A stretch of 64,000 nucleotides of DNA from Bacilli bacterium (GCA_050953045.1 JBMNLY010000001.1:156534-220533), one strand, 5' to 3'; shown: positions 3,314 to 38,584, counted from the first letter of the stretch. Numbers and translations: made by a program. The notes: generated by a model not told the origin, from the sequence alone.

Positions 3314-4621
3314 ATGCGTGGAGTAGTTGCTATAGTTGGTCGGCCAAATGTTGGCAAGTCCAGCTTGTTCAATCGGATAGTGGGAGAAAGAATCTCAATT
3401 ACAGATGATGCCAGCGGGATCACCAGGGATCGAATCTATAGTAAAACTTCATGGTTGAATCAAGAATTCAGAATTATTGATACCGGAGGGATCATCTTAA
3501 AAGATGAGCCCTTTTCTAAAGAAATTAGGGCCCAAGCTGAACTTGCAATGAACGAAGCTGATGTCATTATTATGGTTGTTGATGTCAGAACCGGTATTAC
3601 CACCGAAGATGAAGATGTCGCTTTGATTCTTCAAAAAAGCGGGAAACCAGTTTTGGTTGCTGCTAATAAGGTGGATGATAATAGTTTTGTACCTTTGATT
3701 TATGAGTTCTATAATCTCGGTCTTGGCGATGTGTTTCCGGTTTCCTCGCTCCATGGTATCGGTGTTGGGGACCTCTTAGACAAAGTTATTTCGCTTTTGC
3801 CTGAAACTCGGAAGAAAACTCCTGACGATGCTTCGATTCGTTTTTGTTTAATCGGACAGCCCAATGTCGGAAAGTCAACCCTTGCGAATGCCATCATCGG
3901 AGAAGACCGCGTTATCGTTAGCGAAATCCCGGGCACGACACGGGATGCTGTCGATACACTTTTTTCCAGAGACGGCAAAAAATTTGTTGTTATCGATACA
4001 GCGGGAATTAGAAAACAAGGGAAGATTTATGAGAATGCGGAAAAATATTCTGTTTTAAGAGCAATGGCCGCCTTAGAACGATCCGAGATTGCAGTTTTAC
4101 TACTTGACGGAACCAGTGACATTACTGAGCAGGATAAAAGAATTGCAGGTTATGCTCGCGATTATAATCGGGCGATAATTATTGTCGTTAATAAATGGGA
4201 TTTAGTCGAAAAGGATGAAAAAACAATGCGGGAATTCGAGAGGAAAATCCGAAACGAGTTTGTCTTTTTGGATTTCGCGCCGATTGTTTTCCTTTCCGCA
4301 AAAAACAAACAAAGAGTTCAAACGCTTTTTGCAGAGCTAAACCATGTTTACGAAGCCTTTACAAGAAGAATCTCGACCAGCCTTTTAAATGAAGTCTTAA
4401 CGGATGCATTCTTGCTTAATCAGCCGCCGATTTTTAACGGTAATCGCCTAAAACTGAGTTATGCAACCCAGGAAGATACAAAACCGCCTTCCTTTGTGCT
4501 TTTCGTTAATAATGAAAAACATATGCATTTTTCTTACTTGCGATACCTGGAAAATCGAATTCGAGAAAACTTTGATTTTACTGGTACGCCGCTAAAATTT
4601 ATTTTGAGGAAAAAGGAGTAA
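3314..4621 (+). CDS. der: GTPase Der (EngA), two tandem GTP-binding domains + KH-like C-term
   Basis: GRPNVGKSSLFN and GQPNVGKSTLAN G1 motifs, DTAG G3 motifs twice. Confidence 0.9.
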   Translation: MRGVVAIVGRPNVGKSSLFNRIVGERISITDDASGITRDRIYSKTSWLNQEFRIIDTGGIILKDEPFSKEIRAQAELAMNEADVIIMVVDVRTGITTEDEDVALILQKSGKPVLVAANKVDDNSFVPLIYEFYNLGLGDVFPVSSLHGIGVGDLLDKVISLLPETRKKTPDDASIRFCLIGQPNVGKSTLANAIIGEDRVIVSEIPGTTRDAVDTLFSRDGKKFVVIDTAGIRKQGKIYENAEKYSVLRAMAALERSEIAVLLLDGTSDITEQDKRIAGYARDYNRAIIIVVNKWDLVEKDEKTMREFERKIRNEFVFLDFAPIVFLSAKNKQRVQTLFAELNHVYEAFTRRISTSLLNEVLTDAFLLNQPPIFNGNRLKLSYATQEDTKPPSFVLFVNNEKHMHFSYLRYLENRIRENFDFTGTPLKFILRKKE

Positions 4622-12341: not shown

Positions 12342-14014
12342 GGTAGTGTAAAGTTTTAGTGGGTAAATATAGATATATTAGTTATATAGCTATATTTAAG
12401 CATTTTGAAAACTGAAGAAATTTTCTAACTATAAAGCCACTTTGGTGACACAAGATTATGAATGTAGTTTTTCATATTTGTGTTATTAGATTCCATTATT
12501 GCTAACTCAATATTGTAATCATAAAACTTCTTATACATCTTATTTGCTGCTAAACTTCTGACATTCTTTTGTTCTTGAATTGGTTTCTTCCATTCAAGGA
12601 TATCTTGAATTGTTAATTCGTAAAGATTAGCATTCATTACTATTAGTTGAATTAGGTTTTCTAAAACAGTTCTTTTAAAACCTTTTGGTCTAGATGTTAA
12701 TCTAGATGCAAGTACATGTGATATATGTCCTTCCATACTACATGAGGTTTTATATTCAGGATGTAGTTGGTTTTTAATGTATATCCAGTTGTTGCAGATG
12801 TAGCGCACATGGGAGTTAAAGGCATCAATGTTTAGTTTGTGATCCGGATTATTTTCATAGAAGTACATTGCTATTAATTTAAACTGATTTTTATCTAATG
12901 TTTTTAAATTACTAAAGAAAAAATTAATCATTTCTTTATTTCCAGAAAAGATAGAATTTAATCTTTTCCTTAAGTGAAACTTATCTAGAACTTGAATAAT
13001 CTGAATTTTATATCCACTAAAACAGTATCTTAGTTTTGAGGTGAAACTGTTAATCCATTTAGCGCCATCACCACTAACAAATATATATTGGATATCTTCT
13101 ACATTAAACCTCTTAGGGATATAATCGAAGATTCTATCAGCAAAAATGCTTGTGTCAACGTTTAAACCCCCAAAATAGTGCTTATTTTCGAGTTCTTTTC
13201 GTTTTGAAGCTAATGTACTAGGAGAATGTCCTGTATGAAGTAAAGCTAGATTGGCGATTATGTTTTTGCTTGGTTTACTTTTAACTTCTTTTTCTTGCAA
13301 ATTGCAATGAGCTTCATCAAGTTCAATGTAAATTGTTTCTTTTGACTCATTAAATTTTTCAATGATTTCATCCATTCTAGGAAGATCATTTTCAACTATT
13401 GTATAGTTTTCTAAGATATTAGAAACAGTTTGACGAGAAACCTCTGTATCGGTTAATGCTTTTCTAGCAGCATAGGAAGCATTAACTTCAGTAGCCATTT
13501 TGGTTAACTCAACAATTGCATCCATTGAAAGTCTTGAATATTTGATTATCCCTAAGAAACTATCTACGAAGAAGAAGTTTTCAATATCTTGTGATTTATT
13601 AAGTGCAACATAATAACGTCTTTTAAAAGTAATAACACCAATAGATGTAATAAGAGTACGTTCTTTAAAACCGTGATTTCTATGAGTAGCTTTCCAAAGT
13701 TTGCTTTTAAAATATCTGTTATCAATTGTTTCTAGACATTCAATAATAGCTTGTCTAGTAAGTTCTTTAGAATATTCTTTAAATCTAAAAACAACATCAC
13801 TAAAAGAATAATTTTTAGGATTGCTCTTTAAAACTGGATTAGAATTTGATATAATATTCATGGGTGGGTCTCCTCTCTATGTTTGGTTTTGTCACTTAAA
13901 TTATAGCGAAGACTCACCTCATTGTAAAGATGAATATTATTAACTAATACAGTTATGGTGATTTTCACCATATTTTTTATTTTTTTGATTTACCCACAAC
14001 AAGTTGACACTATC
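12342..14014 (-). mobile_element. ISLre2-family (UPF0236) insertion sequence, complete copy with imperfect terminal inverted repeats and probable 8-9 bp TSD
   Basis: left end GGTAGTGTAAAGTTTTAGTGGGTAAAT vs rc of right end GATAGTGTCAACTTGTTGTGGGTAAAT; flanks TTTTTAAAAAA | IS | TTTAAAAAAAAAA. Confidence 0.75.
12425..13861 (-). CDS. ISLre2-family transposase (UPF0236), 478 aa
   Basis: size, motif GDGAKWI and overall similarity pattern to ISLre2/UPF0236 transposases of clostridia; second identical 5' part at window start. Confidence 0.7.
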   Translation of the reverse strand: MNIISNSNPVLKSNPKNYSFSDVVFRFKEYSKELTRQAIIECLETIDNRYFKSKLWKATHRNHGFKERTLITSIGVITFKRRYYVALNKSQDIENFFFVDSFLGIIKYSRLSMDAIVELTKMATEVNASYAARKALTDTEVSRQTVSNILENYTIVENDLPRMDEIIEKFNESKETIYIELDEAHCNLQEKEVKSKPSKNIIANLALLHTGHSPSTLASKRKELENKHYFGGLNVDTSIFADRIFDYIPKRFNVEDIQYIFVSGDGAKWINSFTSKLRYCFSGYKIQIIQVLDKFHLRKRLNSIFSGNKEMINFFFSNLKTLDKNQFKLIAMYFYENNPDHKLNIDAFNSHVRYICNNWIYIKNQLHPEYKTSCSMEGHISHVLASRLTSRPKGFKRTVLENLIQLIVMNANLYELTIQDILEWKKPIQEQKNVRSLAANKMYKKFYDYNIELAIMESNNTNMKNYIHNLVSPKWLYS

Positions 14015-14106
14015 TTTAAAAAAAAAAGACTAGACAAGGCTAGTCTGCTATGTTATAATAAACTCAGAAAAACAAACAAAGTACGCATATTCGAACGAGG
14101 TAAGAA

Positions 14107-33876: not shown

Positions 33877-33884
33877 GTTAAAAA
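33877..33884 (+). repeat. 8-bp target site duplication GTTAAAAA (left)
   Basis: identical 8-mer abuts the outer end of each IS copy; second at 38577..38584. Confidence 0.75.
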
Positions 33885-33979
33885 GATTAAGCCCTTATAA
33901 TTGTGTAAAAAGAAAATGAGCCACAAACTCATATCCTCGGTTAGAATATAAGTGACAAACAAATACCAAACCGAGGAGG

Positions 33980-35197
33980 ATGAAATCCATGGCTCAGTTT
34001 AATATTACCCTAACCGAAGAAGAATTGCACGGACTTTTTATAAGCAACGGACGAGATGTAGCCGTAGCAAAATTGCTAGAAAAGATCTTTAATGAGATCC
34101 TTCGAGGCCAGTCCACTGAACAGCTATGTGCTGAACCGTATGAGAGAACCGATCAGCGAAGAGCATACCGTAATGGCAGCTATAAGCGTGAACTGGTGAC
34201 CCGGGTTGGAACACTGACCTTACGCATTCCTCGCCACCGAAACGGCGAATTCAGCACCGAACTTTTTGAACGTTATCAGCGGAGCGAACAGGCACTGGTG
34301 CTGGCCATGATGGAAATGGTGGTTAATGGTGTCTCTACTCGGAAAGTAGAAACCATCACCGAAGAACTCTGTGGCAAGAAGTTTTCTAAATCAACCGTTT
34401 CAGCTCTTTGTCAGAAATTGGACCCGCTGGTTCATGACTTTCGAACAAGACCGCTGGAAAGCCACTATCCGTTTTTGATAGTCGATGCCCTTTATCTCAA
34501 AGCGCGCATTAATAACAGGGTACAATCCAGAGGCTTACTTGTCGCTATCGGTGTCAACGAAAAAGGAAATCGGGAAGTTATCGGCTTTCAAGTGGCCAAT
34601 AGCGAATCGGAAAGCAGCTGGAGCGATTTTTTTGAATCATTAAAAGAGCGAGGGCTGAAGGATGTGCACCTGGTGACTTCCGACAACCATAAAGGCCTGG
34701 TGAATGCCATTCAGAAACAATTCCAGGGAACCACTTGGCAAAGGTGTCAAACCCACTTTTCAAGGAACATGATTGATCAGACACCCAAATCGCTGCAGGT
34801 CGAAATGAAGGAAGATCTGCGCCGACTTTACGAAGCCGTAGACCTGGAAAGCGCCAAAGGTGTCCGGGATCAGATTATTGCCACATATGAATCCAAAGCG
34901 CCTAGAGCAACATCCTTACTGGATGAAGCCTTTGACGATATTACCGCCGTTTTAATCATGCCACTCAAATACCGCAAAAGACTGCGTACAACCAATGGGG
35001 TAGAACGGCTTAACCAGGAAATCCGGCGTCGTGAACGGGTTATACGTATTTTCCCTAACGAGGCATCAGTGATCCGGCTCATGGGTGCCCTGCTGATGGA
35101 ACAAAGCGAAAAATGGCAGACAGGGTGTAAATACTTTGAGATGGATCTGTATTACCAGGCTATGAAAAAAGATTCAAAAGATACGTTTGCTGCTTAG
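33980..35197 (+). CDS. IS256-family (MULE) transposase; probable true start ATG 33989
   Basis: YPFLIVDALYLKAR, WQRCQTHFSRN, RTTNGVERLNQEIRRRERV signature blocks. Confidence 0.85.
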   Translation: MKSMAQFNITLTEEELHGLFISNGRDVAVAKLLEKIFNEILRGQSTEQLCAEPYERTDQRRAYRNGSYKRELVTRVGTLTLRIPRHRNGEFSTELFERYQRSEQALVLAMMEMVVNGVSTRKVETITEELCGKKFSKSTVSALCQKLDPLVHDFRTRPLESHYPFLIVDALYLKARINNRVQSRGLLVAIGVNEKGNREVIGFQVANSESESSWSDFFESLKERGLKDVHLVTSDNHKGLVNAIQKQFQGTTWQRCQTHFSRNMIDQTPKSLQVEMKEDLRRLYEAVDLESAKGVRDQIIATYESKAPRATSLLDEAFDDITAVLIMPLKYRKRLRTTNGVERLNQEIRRRERVIRIFPNEASVIRLMGALLMEQSEKWQTGCKYFEMDLYYQAMKKDSKDTFAA

Positions 35198-35217
35198 AGT
35201 CGCATTTATTCCACGGT

Positions 35218-35401
35218 CCTGGTTGACAGTGAGCCTCTAGCCGCATGGCTTCTGGCACCACAGGCAGCCCCCTGTTCACAACTGCCTACCTGGTCCTAAT
35301 GGGTGATTTAAAGCTGCCGAGTATTGCCATAAAGGTTGTCCCGTGTTTGGGTGCTGCCAGGCTTTTAGCCTACCATGCGGCCTCTCACTGTTCAACCAGG
35401 C
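35218..35401 (+). other. GC-rich structured segment inside IS 3' region (long-range stem CCTGGTTGACAGTGAG...CTCACTGTTCAACCAGG, inner stem GCCGCATGG/CCATGCGGC); candidate IS-borne RNA element
   Basis: 314-bp non-coding tail after transposase stop, nested inverted repeats. Confidence 0.35.
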
Positions 35402-35505
35402 TTTCGCGGCATAAAAGCTCACGGTTTGTGATACTGAAAAAGTGAGCAGCCTTAACAACAAACTGATTAAAGTGTTACCGAGGAAATTTACACACTAATT
35501 GGGAC

Positions 35506-35534
35506 TTGACTTTGTAACGTTTGCATATTATCAT
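35506..35534 (+). promoter_or_regulatory. possible hybrid promoter: outward -35 TTGACT at IS end + flank -10 TATCAT (17-nt spacer) directed at SDR gene
   Basis: IS256 ends are known to create hybrid promoters; geometry fits. Confidence 0.35.
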
Positions 35535-35621
35535 ATTATTACAGTATTTGATTCGTGTGTTAACCAAATAGCGGAAATGTTAAACGAAAAGAAAGAGGTG
35601 ATGTGTAAGTAGAAACACCTG

Positions 35622-36059
35622 AAAGATAAAAATTTAGAAAGGTGGAATCTATAATGGGTAAATTAGATGGCAAAGTAGTAGTAGTGACAGGTTCAGTTTC
35701 AGCGATTCCTGGTTTTGACTCTATCGGTTCGGCAACAGTTCGTGAAGCATTGGCTGAAGGAGCAAAAAAAGATAAAAATTTAGAAAGGTGGAATCTATAA
35801 TGGGTAAATTAGATGGCAAAGTAGTAGTAGTGACAGGTTCAGTTTCAGCGATTCCTGGTTTTGACTCTATCGGTTCGGCAACAGTTCGTGAAGCATTGGC
35901 TGAAGGAGCAAAAAAAGATAAAAATTTAGAAAGGTGGAATCTATAATGGGTAAATTAGATGGCAAAGTAGTAGTAGTGACAGGTTCAGTTTCAGCGATTC
36001 CTGGTTTTGACTCTATCGGTTCGGCAACAGTTCGTGAAGCATTGGCTGAAGGAGCAAAA
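35622..36059 (+). repeat. tandem triplication (3 x 146 bp) of SDR gene leader + RBS + first 37 codons
   Basis: ATGs at 35654, 35800, 35946 each preceded by GGTGGAATCTATA; upstream minigenes end ..ERWNL TAA overlapping next ATG (TAATG). Confidence 0.9.
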
Positions 36060-36875
36060 GGGGTAGTTGTGTCCGACATTAACGACAAATTGGGTGAAGC
36101 TTTTGTTAAGGAATTAAATGAGAAATACGGTGAAGGACACGCAACTTTTGTTCACACTGACGTATCTAAACCTGAAGATGTTGAAAAATTATTTGAAACT
36201 ACAGAAAAGGTTTATGGAACTGTAGATGCAATAATGGCTAATGCCGGCGTGGTAACTGCAGAAGATGTCGATAAAGATCCGGAAGAAGTCTTGAAATCTC
36301 GTAAATTTATTCAAAGCATCAATGAAGATGGAGTATTCTATACAGCATTATATGGTTCTCGTTTAATGATCAAAAAAGGAACAAAAGGTTCAATCGTAAT
36401 GGTTTCCAGTATTCATGGTGTTGCAGGTCGTCCTAAAGTTGTAAATCAGGAAACAGGCGATGTTTTAATTGAGCGTTTCAATTTACTTCAATATACAATG
36501 GGTAAACATGGCGTAGTTGGTTTATCAAAAGCATTAGCCCTGCAATTAGCAGATTATGGTATACGCGTAAATACTGTAAATCCAGGTTATATTATGACAC
36601 CATTATTCCAAGCAGCTGTAGCTGCCGATAAAAACGATCTGGCAGATAAAGATTCATTGACAACAGAAGCATTTGACTTTGCTCAATTAGCAGCATTACA
36701 CCCATTATGCAATGACCCTGTAAAAGATAAAGATATCGTTCCTCGCGGCAAATTCGGCGGCCGGATGGGGGTTCCTGCTGAAATTGCTAAGCCTGCGGTA
36801 TTCTTAATGTCAGATGAAGCATCCTTTGTGACAGGTCAAAAATTAGTAATTGATGGGGGTTATACTGCAAGCTAA
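35946..36875 (+). CDS. short-chain dehydrogenase/reductase (SDR) family oxidoreductase, transposon passenger
   Basis: YTMGK (YxxxK), NTVNPGYIMTPL, atypical Gly-rich N-term TGSVSAIPGFDSIGSA; ORF-track start 35934 is an upstream GTG. Confidence 0.75.
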   Translation: MGKLDGKVVVVTGSVSAIPGFDSIGSATVREALAEGAKGVVVSDINDKLGEAFVKELNEKYGEGHATFVHTDVSKPEDVEKLFETTEKVYGTVDAIMANAGVVTAEDVDKDPEEVLKSRKFIQSINEDGVFYTALYGSRLMIKKGTKGSIVMVSSIHGVAGRPKVVNQETGDVLIERFNLLQYTMGKHGVVGLSKALALQLADYGIRVNTVNPGYIMTPLFQAAVAADKNDLADKDSLTTEAFDFAQLAALHPLCNDPVKDKDIVPRGKFGGRMGVPAEIAKPAVFLMSDEASFVTGQKLVIDGGYTAS

Positions 36876-36949
36876 AAGCAACCTAATAATCACTAAACCG
36901 TGTAAATGGAATAATGATCTAAAAATCTAGTTAGGGGCTGCTGAAAAAC

Positions 36950-38576
36950 GATTAAGCCCTTATAATTGTGTAAAAAGAAAATGAGCCACAAACTCATATC
37001 CTCGGTTAGAATATAAGTGACAAACAAATACCAAACCGAGGAGGATGAAATCCATGGCTCAGTTTAATATTACCCTAACCGAAGAAGAATTGCACGGACT
37101 TTTTATAAGCAACGGACGAGATGTAGCCGTAGCAAAATTGCTAGAAAAGATCTTTAATGAGATCCTTCGAGGCCAGTCCACTGAACAGCTATGTGCTGAA
37201 CCGTATGAGAGAACCGATCAGCGAAGAGCATACCGTAATGGCAGCTATAAGCGTGAACTGGTGACCCGGGTTGGAACACTGACCTTACGCATTCCTCGCC
37301 ACCGAAACGGCGAATTCAGCACCGAACTTTTTGAACGTTATCAGCGGAGCGAACAGGCACTGGTGCTGGCCATGATGGAAATGGTGGTTAATGGTGTCTC
37401 TACTCGGAAAGTAGAAACCATCACCGAAGAACTCTGTGGCAAGAAGTTTTCTAAATCAACCGTTTCAGCTCTTTGTCAGAAATTGGACCCGCTGGTTCAT
37501 GACTTTCGAACAAGACCGCTGGAAAGCCACTATCCGTTTTTGATAGTCGATGCCCTTTATCTCAAAGCGCGCATTAATAACAGGGTACAATCCAGAGGCT
37601 TACTTGTCGCTATCGGTGTCAACGAAAAAGGAAATCGGGAAGTTATCGGCTTTCAAGTGGCCAATAGCGAATCGGAAAGCAGCTGGAGCGATTTTTTTGA
37701 ATCATTAAAAGAGCGAGGGCTGAAGGATGTGCACCTGGTGACTTCCGACAACCATAAAGGCCTGGTGAATGCCATTCAGAAACAATTCCAGGGAACCACT
37801 TGGCAAAGGTGTCAAACCCACTTTTCAAGGAACATGATTGATCAGACACCCAAATCGCTGCAGGTCGAAATGAAGGAAGATCTGCGCCGACTTTACGAAG
37901 CCGTAGACCTGGAAAGCGCCAAAGGTGTCCGGGATCAGATTATTGCCACATATGAATCCAAAGCGCCTAGAGCAACATCCTTACTGGATGAAGCCTTTGA
38001 CGATATTACCGCCGTTTTAATCATGCCACTCAAATACCGCAAAAGACTGCGTACAACCAATGGGGTAGAACGGCTTAACCAGGAAATCCGGCGTCGTGAA
38101 CGGGTTATACGTATTTTCCCTAACGAGGCATCAGTGATCCGGCTCATGGGTGCCCTGCTGATGGAACAAAGCGAAAAATGGCAGACAGGGTGTAAATACT
38201 TTGAGATGGATCTGTATTACCAGGCTATGAAAAAAGATTCAAAAGATACGTTTGCTGCTTAGAGTCGCATTTATTCCACGGTCCTGGTTGACAGTGAGCC
38301 TCTAGCCGCATGGCTTCTGGCACCACAGGCAGCCCCCTGTTCACAACTGCCTACCTGGTCCTAATGGGTGATTTAAAGCTGCCGAGTATTGCCATAAAGG
38401 TTGTCCCGTGTTTGGGTGCTGCCAGGCTTTTAGCCTACCATGCGGCCTCTCACTGTTCAACCAGGCTTTCGCGGCATAAAAGCTCACGGTTTGTGATACT
38501 GAAAAAGTGAGCAGCCTTAACAACAAACTGATTAAAGTGTTACCGAGGAAATTTACACACTAATTGGGACTTGACT
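36950..38576 (+). mobile_element. IS256-family insertion sequence, copy 2 (identical to copy 1)
   Basis: identical sequence and ORF content. Confidence 0.8.
37045..38262 (+). CDS. IS256-family transposase (copy 2)
   Basis: identical to 33980..35197. Confidence 0.85.
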   Translation: MKSMAQFNITLTEEELHGLFISNGRDVAVAKLLEKIFNEILRGQSTEQLCAEPYERTDQRRAYRNGSYKRELVTRVGTLTLRIPRHRNGEFSTELFERYQRSEQALVLAMMEMVVNGVSTRKVETITEELCGKKFSKSTVSALCQKLDPLVHDFRTRPLESHYPFLIVDALYLKARINNRVQSRGLLVAIGVNEKGNREVIGFQVANSESESSWSDFFESLKERGLKDVHLVTSDNHKGLVNAIQKQFQGTTWQRCQTHFSRNMIDQTPKSLQVEMKEDLRRLYEAVDLESAKGVRDQIIATYESKAPRATSLLDEAFDDITAVLIMPLKYRKRLRTTNGVERLNQEIRRRERVIRIFPNEASVIRLMGALLMEQSEKWQTGCKYFEMDLYYQAMKKDSKDTFAA

Positions 38577-38584
38577 GTTAAAAA
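38577..38584 (+). repeat. 8-bp target site duplication GTTAAAAA (right)
   Basis: see 33877..33884. Confidence 0.75.

Follow-up and report, generated by a model that had tools for sequence, protein, structure and literature searches.

Downstream of the transposase gene in an IS256-family insertion sequence (IS) of a Bacilli genome lies a long imperfect hairpin whose core (35202-35419), to judge from its kinship with plasmid replication origins, is very probably a single-strand origin of the ssoA/palA kind. The explanation that best accommodates all the evidence, and which we consider likely, is that an origin of this kind, belonging to the minus strand, is a conserved internal module of the IS. 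Such an origin is unexpected in a transposon of double-stranded DNA. Positions throughout are those of the window, by which we mean the whole stretch of 64,000 nucleotides that was analysed, and the features discussed are collected in Table 1.

Table 1. Positions of the IS copies, of the hairpin in the 3' tail and of its sequence elements within the window.
Feature	Position	Strand	Remarks
Target-site duplication, left copy	33877..33884		GTTAAAAA(G); 8 bp, possibly 9 bp
IS256-family IS, copy A	33885..35511	+	About 1627 bp; ends +/-1 nt
Left inverted repeat	33885..33915	+	TATAAT at 33896-33901, 11 nt from the tip; read from the sequence
Transposase gene	33980..35197	+	405 aa; DDE transposase of Mutator/IS256 type; stop codon at 35197
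Probable ssoA/palA-like single-strand-origin hairpin, core of the tail	35202..35419	-	Closing pairs reach 35196-35425
RSB partner arm	35204..35216	-	CCGTGGAATAAAT on the minus strand; 3' arm at the hairpin base
Extended -10-like box	35367..35375	-	TGGTAGGCT; 17 nt past the -35-like hexamer
-35-like hexamer	35390..35395	-	TTGAAC in the window; TTGACA in most homologues
RSB box	35401..35416	-	TTTTATGCCGCGAAAG on the minus strand; 5' arm at the hairpin base
Variable spacer, hairpin to right inverted repeat	35426..35476		Poorly conserved; length varies among relatives
Right inverted repeat	35477..35511	+	Ends in TTGACT (outward or junction -35)
IS copy B	36950..38576	+	Same orientation as copy A
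Second ssoA-like hairpin, in IS copy B	38267..38484	-	Covariance model 99 bits, E = 1e-22
Target-site duplication, right copy	38577..38584		GTTAAAAA(G); directly right of IS copy B

The two IS copies in the window are 99.9% identical over 1633 aligned positions, copy B being aligned from 36944. Each contains a 405-aa gene, the product of which matches Transposase_mut (PF00872) in a Pfam search with an E-value of 4e-129. The left and right inverted repeats can be aligned with each other and both have a subterminal GTGTAAA motif; the right one forms a nearly invariant block in an alignment of 29 tails. A TGTAAA motif is typical of the IS256 family and, like an 8-bp target duplication, has been described for it (PMC7780238), so that the Transposase_mut DDE enzyme, the inverted repeats with subterminal TGTAAA and the target duplication of 8-9 bp all place the element in that family. 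The TnpA of ISCth4 (PDB 6xg8) proved to be only a distant relative of the window transposase (E = 3e-49), and an identification of the window IS as ISCth4 was rejected on this account. By analogy with the circle-junction promoter paradigm of IS256 and ISCth4 (PMC7780238), the TTGACT at the right tip and the TATAAT near the left one would be brought to 17 bp apart by a 6-bp spacer and may thereby form a promoter across the junction of a circle.

The duplication flanking the IS brackets the whole two-IS unit (33877-38584), and there is no duplication at the inner junctions. On sequence grounds the two copies, together with the DNA between them (35512-36949), are a composite transposon. A short-chain dehydrogenase gene (35934-36875) lies inside this unit, between the IS copies, and rnf genes adjoin the IS. 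The TTGACT at the IS right end is followed 17 bp further on by a TATCAT in the flanking DNA (35506-35534); this predicted hybrid promoter, with 10 of 12 consensus matches, points outward, at the dehydrogenase gene. A perfect tandem repeat of three 146-bp units (35622-36059) spans the ribosome-binding site of the same gene together with its first 38 codons, producing two 52-aa decoy ORFs ahead of the full-length one, and represents either a recent amplification or an assembly artefact. Elsewhere in the window, an 851-bp repeat (1-851 and 13168-14017, 99.8% identical) overlaps a 478-aa ORF (12425-13861, minus strand) which by eye resembles a transposase of the ISLre2/UPF0236 type; repeat and ORF together point to another IS family present in at least two copies. 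No ssoA-like hairpin lies beside this repeat, the only matches in the window to the covariance model described below being the two borne by the IS256-family copies.

Between the transposase stop codon and the right end of the IS there are 314 non-coding bp, and this tail belongs to the IS since copy B shares it right up to the right end with its inverted repeat. An earlier reading of the region, made from the sequence alone and referred to here as the sequence-only reading, had described a structured tail of this length behind the transposase, and we find it to lie inside the IS and to be common to both copies. The nested inverted repeats from which it was recognised are the same as the helices of the minimum-energy fold. 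The structure is real but of smaller extent than had been supposed: it is restricted to 35196-35425, the remainder of the tail being spacer and right inverted repeat. The hairpin starts 4-7 nt past the stop codon and lies some 90 bp from the IS right end. A GC content of about 55% had been ascribed to the 314 bp, for which the actual figure is 49.4%; only the hairpin reaches 54.1%, and the surrounding genome has 36%.

Folding is significant on either strand. As plus-strand RNA the tail attains -110.8 kcal/mol (z = -3.85), with 0/100 shuffles as good, and the 230-nt core folded as minus-strand DNA attains -50.1 kcal/mol (z = -4.82), with 0/200 shuffles as good. The two ORFs overlapping on opposite strands that had been noted in the tail (35245-35445, plus; 35276-35461, minus) do exist. 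Neither has a match in Pfam and their frames are not kept even in relatives 87-98% identical; a protein-coding reading was rejected for these reasons and the non-coding one, already preferred from the sequence alone, holds. A search of the whole window against Rfam 15, which had been proposed as a check, gave no match at the gathering score, and within 35100-35650 the best E-value was 1.3, which is noise. No terminator-like T run is present at the hairpin.

Conservation of the hairpin was assessed in two sets of sequences. The first derives from a scan of one genome per species for transposase relatives, which gave 60 loci. The tail can be aligned in about 33 of these, down to DNA identities of about 66%, while in distant relatives without a tail the 3' end consists only of an inverted repeat of about 78 bp. 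Among close IS relatives with an intact 3' flank the hairpin is kept in 38 of 38, the exception being a deletion variant (L002); these 38 hairpin-bearing loci are drawn from many Bacillota MAGs, and 13 distant IS relatives lack the hairpin. One relative, 77% identical, has it in six different insertion contexts. The second set comes from pattern scans of metagenome and viral contigs with the 15-mer CTTTCGCGGCATAAA. Most of the matches listed were due to chance, and only the 35 loci among them with the partner motif 123-225 nt away were used, corresponding to 34 distinct cores. The two sets together provide 66 distinct cores.

When each tail is folded separately the same plan emerges in every subfamily. 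From the outside inwards, a short closing stem at the stop codon is followed by a basal helix, nearly invariant and with mismatches that are fixed, then by two helices that covary and finally by a distal part variable in both length and shape. In a plus-strand MAFFT alignment of whole tails, where the distal part has very many gaps, RNAalifold recovered hardly any structure. Pairing was counted on a minus-strand alignment (A2) over the 45 pairs found in the consensus of the per-sequence folds. In the 66 homologues 89.7% of cells pair, compared with 33-46% when partners are slid by 1-3 columns, and in 28 of the 45 pairs both partners have changed. The count of compensatory cells is 361, as against 117.5 in shuffles (0/500). 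The sequence-only reading had named as counter-evidence homologous IS copies without the tail, or stems without compensatory changes; in the copies compared the tail is kept and compensatory changes are present. The 34 IS256-borne copies taken alone tell the same story, with 91.7% of cells pairing (34-45% when slid) and double changes in 19 pairs, which indicates that the hairpin was preserved as the lineage of the IS diverged.

Selection for the hairpin acts on the minus strand, which is opposite to that of the transposase. This strand folds better in 63 of the 66 cores, by a mean of 12 kcal/mol. Over the same 45 consensus pairs, the minus strand has 261 G·T pairs and the plus strand 40; on the latter 81.8% of cells still pair. 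Scores with the covariance model are similarly one-sided, at 99-132 bits for the minus strand and at most 43 bits for the plus strand.

The relationship to plasmid origins is clearest at the base of the hairpin. The published RSB is given as 5'-TTATGCCGAGAAAATTT-3', and the RSB in the tail agrees at 12 of 13 positions with TTATGCCGAGAAA (PMC4598088); both it and its partner arm are invariant in the 66 homologues. In the window TTTATGCCGCGAAAG is paired with CCGTGGAATAAA at the base. The palA/ssoA elements of pT181, pE194 and pC194, which we located by exact RSB matches, each form one long hairpin in which TTTATGCCGAGAAAA pairs with AATTGGAATAAA. In known origins of this kind the RSB is found in the loop-distal part of the hairpin and a loop box, CS-6, terminates the primer (PMC8860593, PMC5703833).

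A covariance model, R1, allowed the relationship to be measured. It has 148 positions and was built from 26 short homologues, the full alignment extending over 305 columns, with both the window and the classical plasmids kept out of the seed. R1 detects the two hairpins of the window at 99 bits each (E = 1e-22), on the minus strand only, and gives full-length matches to pE194 (44.2 bits), pC194 (42.7 bits) and pT181 (39.1 bits), with E-values from 5e-9 to 1e-7. In pUB110 (ssoU) and in pTA1060, pTA1015 and pTA1040 (ssoT) nothing better than E = 0.35 was found with filters off; membership of the ssoU or ssoT types was rejected, their fold being different as well. The comparison with plasmid origins covered the ssoA/palA of pT181, pE194 and pC194 and the ssoU and ssoT types. 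In Bacillus sonorensis, an 8-kb MOBV plasmid bearing an Inc13 replicon has a hairpin of the window type; its size and typing suggest a rolling-circle plasmid.

The tail core thus has the RSB at the loop-distal base of a strand-specific imperfect hairpin that is homologous to palA elements. As in the ssoA/palA of pT181, pE194 and pC194, the hairpin is long (about 160-230 nt) and specific to one strand; the RSB in its 5' basal arm pairs with ..GGAATAAA, with the same unpaired G, G·T wobble and purine-rich interior loop; promoter-like hexamers occur in the stem at the same distance; and the whole often starts a few nucleotides past a neighbouring stop codon. In pT181 (L304) the mobV/pre stop codon is at 3762 and palA begins 5 nt further on, at 3767; hairpins beside IS and recombinase genes lie similarly close to a stop codon, but in both orientations. 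There are differences too. The RSB in the window has C for A at one position, the partner arm reads CCGTGG rather than AATTGG, the distal part of window-type hairpins is variable and often branched, and GC content is about 54% rather than about 40%. CS-6 (TAGCGT/A) is absent from the window element and is found anywhere at all in only five of the 66 cores, never at the loop-equivalent place, for which reason we call the element ssoA-like, or a CS-6-less variant, rather than a canonical ssoA. Finally, where ssoA is expected on a plasmid or other carrier with a single-stranded stage, the window element sits inside a chromosomal DDE insertion sequence, inverted with respect to the adjacent gene.

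Among the possibilities raised in the sequence-only reading, those of a captured fragment or of a cis-acting structure came close to the mark. The module could also be a piece of a rolling-circle plasmid or ICE that was acquired once by an ancestral IS and has been a dead passenger since. Its clear plasmid type and its absence from distant IS256 relatives would be expected in that case, as would deletions in some copies. Two close relatives with transposases 98-99% identical have damaged tails: in one (L002, 2719-2937) the hairpin has lost its RSB-side half, and the other (L001, 2719-2986) has a distal part that is different and shorter. These indicate that the hairpin is dispensable for persistence. 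Several facts tell against a passenger without function. The 38 sampled relatives whose 3' flank is intact all retain the hairpin, at DNA identities between tails as low as about 66%; within the IS lineage, compensatory double changes occur in 19 pairs and 91.7% of cells pair; and the nucleotides of P1 and RSB are invariant although the adjoining spacer varies freely. We therefore regard a dead passenger as improbable.

Also at a fixed place in the 5' arm, about 44 nt past the RSB, is a conserved module of the form TTGACA-N16-19-TGnTAnnnT. One subfamily has a perfect TGGTATAAT at the -10-like box. The -10-like hexamer of the window itself, TAGGCT, agrees with the consensus at three of six positions and was not called by a generic promoter scan. 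By eye, weaker boxes can be discerned at the equivalent place in pT181 palA (TGT-TAGCTA) and in pE194 (TATACT). The -35-like and -10-like boxes may function as a promoter.

These boxes bear on the reading that had been favoured from the sequence alone, namely a regulatory, structured RNA. This could be the 3'UTR of the transposase mRNA, acting as stabiliser, terminator or cis-regulator, or else an antisense RNA, transcribed from double-stranded DNA at the promoter-like boxes and running leftwards into the transposase gene at its 3' end. A hairpin that begins 4-7 nt past a stop codon, with a significant plus-strand RNA fold (z = -3.85) and 81.8% of plus-strand cells pairing, is compatible with an RNA, and the conserved -35 and extended -10 boxes do face the transposase gene, so that a transcript from double-stranded DNA can be envisaged. 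However, pairing has been selected on the strand complementary to the transposase mRNA, which argues against the sense version. An antisense transcript starting past the -10 box would be without the RSB and the whole of the 5' arm. Both of these show covariation with the 3' arm, which an RNA cannot explain and only a single strand having both arms does. The same two-arm base, moreover, is found in the homologous ssoA/palA origins of plasmids, where it works as single-stranded DNA (PMC5703833), and neither an Rfam family nor a T run speaks for an RNA. A structured RNA thus appears unlikely in either version, and the reading of the hairpin as a single-strand DNA origin is to be preferred.

Hairpins of the same kind are found beside genes other than IS256 transposases. 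Among the matches listed, an IS256 transposase adjoins only two of the 34 distinct metagenome and viral cores. The other cores listed lie 6-40 nt from a stop codon, in either orientation, and the neighbouring genes encode large serine recombinases and transposases of IS3-like, Zn-finger DDE (with an IS240-like domain), ISLre2, IS110 and other rve-domain types. Examples at the 3' ends of genes include an IS3-like pair (L113, 1234-1414; L123, 1535-1718), a Zn-finger DDE pair (L067, 2110-2270; L129, 38-196) and a large serine recombinase pair (L089, 7997-8168; L296, 2874-3060). Inverted repeats enclosing the hairpin were sought in these other IS families and pairwise homology gave partial answers. 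Homology in the IS3-like pair runs about 100 nt past the hairpin, making the latter internal, and in the other two pairs the hairpin is co-inherited with the Zn-finger DDE gene and the serine recombinase gene, respectively. Such homology through the hairpins suggests that the module is internal to several unrelated mobile elements, although the associations outside IS256 should be taken as leads rather than as settled. A viral contig (L209, 687-753) contains a 67-nt miniature, made up of the invariant basal helix, with RSB and partner arm, and a short AT-rich hairpin closing it, without the promoter-like boxes.

This range of neighbours makes it extremely improbable that the IS256-type transposase binds the hairpin as a subterminal cis-acting site, marking the right end for instance. 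Its location some 90 bp from that end would be suitable, and end asymmetry does matter in copy-out/paste-in transposition (PMC7780238), but the identical base motif adjoins IS3-like, Zn-finger DDE, IS110 and serine recombinase genes and occurs also on plasmids without any transposase. The neighbours bear as well on a main role as a site of recombination or insertion, by which the IS would recombine with sso-bearing plasmids or attract other ISs. The RSB was first defined as a hot spot of plasmid cointegration. It promotes plasmid cointegrates (PMC5703833). In two unrelated hairpins, which belong to different subfamilies (L107, 5341-5507; L124, 1518-1749), the RSB lies 16-17 nt from the end of an ISLre2-like transposase gene, and in L124 the ISLre2-like gene cuts an IS256 copy exactly at the edge of the hairpin. 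These junctions suggest insertion or recombination targeted at the RSB, but they are few and all from single metagenome contigs. As the main role it would also leave unexplained the whole hairpin of 150-230 nt, its strand bias and the promoter-like boxes, and we consider it very unlikely.

How might an ssoA-like origin work in this setting? By analogy with the plasmid origins, a minus strand in single-stranded form would fold into the imperfect hairpin of about 220 nt, with the RSB TTTATGCCGCGAAAG paired with CCGTGGAATAAA at its base, and the stem would rebuild a duplex promoter of sigma-A type (TTGACA-like, 17 nt, TGnTAnnnT). Host RNA polymerase would bind the RSB and the rebuilt promoter and make a short primer RNA, which DNA polymerase would then extend toward the right inverted repeat, on the 5' side of the minus strand. 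Where the single strand is circular, synthesis would first cross the junction of right and left inverted repeats and afterwards the transposase gene. A minus-strand circle would accordingly have its junction promoter rebuilt before its transposase gene, though such a circle would need the left end as donor. On a linear minus strand, synthesis would exit the IS rather than cross the transposase gene.

Two occasions for such synthesis can be envisaged. In the first, a displaced single-strand circle of the IS would be converted during copy-out/paste-in. In the second, the IS would serve as a portable origin, from which single-stranded carriers, for example rolling-circle plasmids, ICEs or IMEs, would have their second strand synthesised. 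That the origin, with RNA polymerase priming second-strand synthesis, is functional for the IS seems to us, on balance, the better supposition; either occasion in particular can be put forward at most tentatively. The firing of the origin, the binding of RNA polymerase, priming and a single-stranded stage of the window IS are all inferred by analogy with known origins.

Two aspects of IS256-family transposition sit awkwardly with this. Elements of the family are thought to move via double-stranded circles (PMC7780238), so that the need for a single-strand origin is not obvious. In the strand-transfer complex of ISCth4 the role of recipient is assigned to the left inverted repeat (PMC7780238); if the right inverted repeat is likewise the donor here, the circularised strand would be the plus strand and not the one bearing the hairpin.

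Among known systems, a parallel is offered by ICEBs1, the sso1 of which lies 6 bp downstream of nicK, is orientation-specific and aids the element both after single-strand transfer and in autonomous rolling-circle replication (PMC4595007). The window hairpin resembles sso1 in lying on an integrated mobile element just past the last gene of a module. It differs in architecture, since sso1 and the ssoT of pTA1060 and pBAA1 are made up of three stem-loops, with a different fold and no R1 match, and ICEs have a documented single-stranded stage whereas IS256-type elements do not. With IS256 and ISCth4 the window IS shares the Transposase_mut DDE enzyme, TGTAAA inverted repeats, an AT-rich 8-bp target duplication and -35 and -10 halves at its tips. 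It is longer, at about 1627 bp compared with about 1.3-1.5 kb, the extra length consisting of the origin-like hairpin and the spacer.

DNA structures acting in single-stranded form are known from other mobile elements. The Frpo-type single-stranded DNA promoters of conjugative plasmid leading regions, in which a long hairpin rebuilds -35 and -10 boxes, were reportedly described by Masai and Arai in 1997. The Frpo hairpin lets host RNA polymerase start on incoming single strands; it belongs to Gram-negative plasmids, serves early gene expression as well as priming and is not known to share an RSB with the window element. The subterminal hairpins of IS200/IS605 elements are likewise IS-borne DNA structures that act single-stranded. 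Those are short, lie at both ends and are recognised for cleavage by an HUH transposase, unlike the one large internal hairpin, with a plasmid-origin signature, of the DDE element in the window. Single-strand origins apparently occur in IMEs also.

Origins of this class are already known from rolling-circle plasmids and from ICEs (PMC4595007), for which a single-stranded stage is documented. Full-text literature searches found no report of a DDE insertion sequence with one as a conserved internal component. In practical terms, model R1 can annotate CS-6-less ssoA-like origins, which searches for RSB and CS-6 motifs would miss, and the hairpin, which can be deleted or inverted, offers a simple experimental handle. 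IS insertions near an origin can alter plasmid host range by another route (PMC12016507); the present finding would suggest that ISs can also equip their carriers with a host-adapted origin, and this has a bearing on plasmid host range. A more general proposition, that ISs of Bacillota moving by copy-out/paste-in, in this IS256 lineage and apparently also in IS3-like and further families, possess a second-strand origin of their own with a primer made by RNA polymerase, is rather doubtful at present. Were it true, the IS life cycle would include a single-stranded form, circular or transferred, and in the former case an origin near the right end would rebuild the junction promoter ahead of the transposase gene; or else such ISs, acting as portable single-strand origins adapted to the host, would come to the rescue of rolling-circle plasmids and ICEs and be spread along with them.
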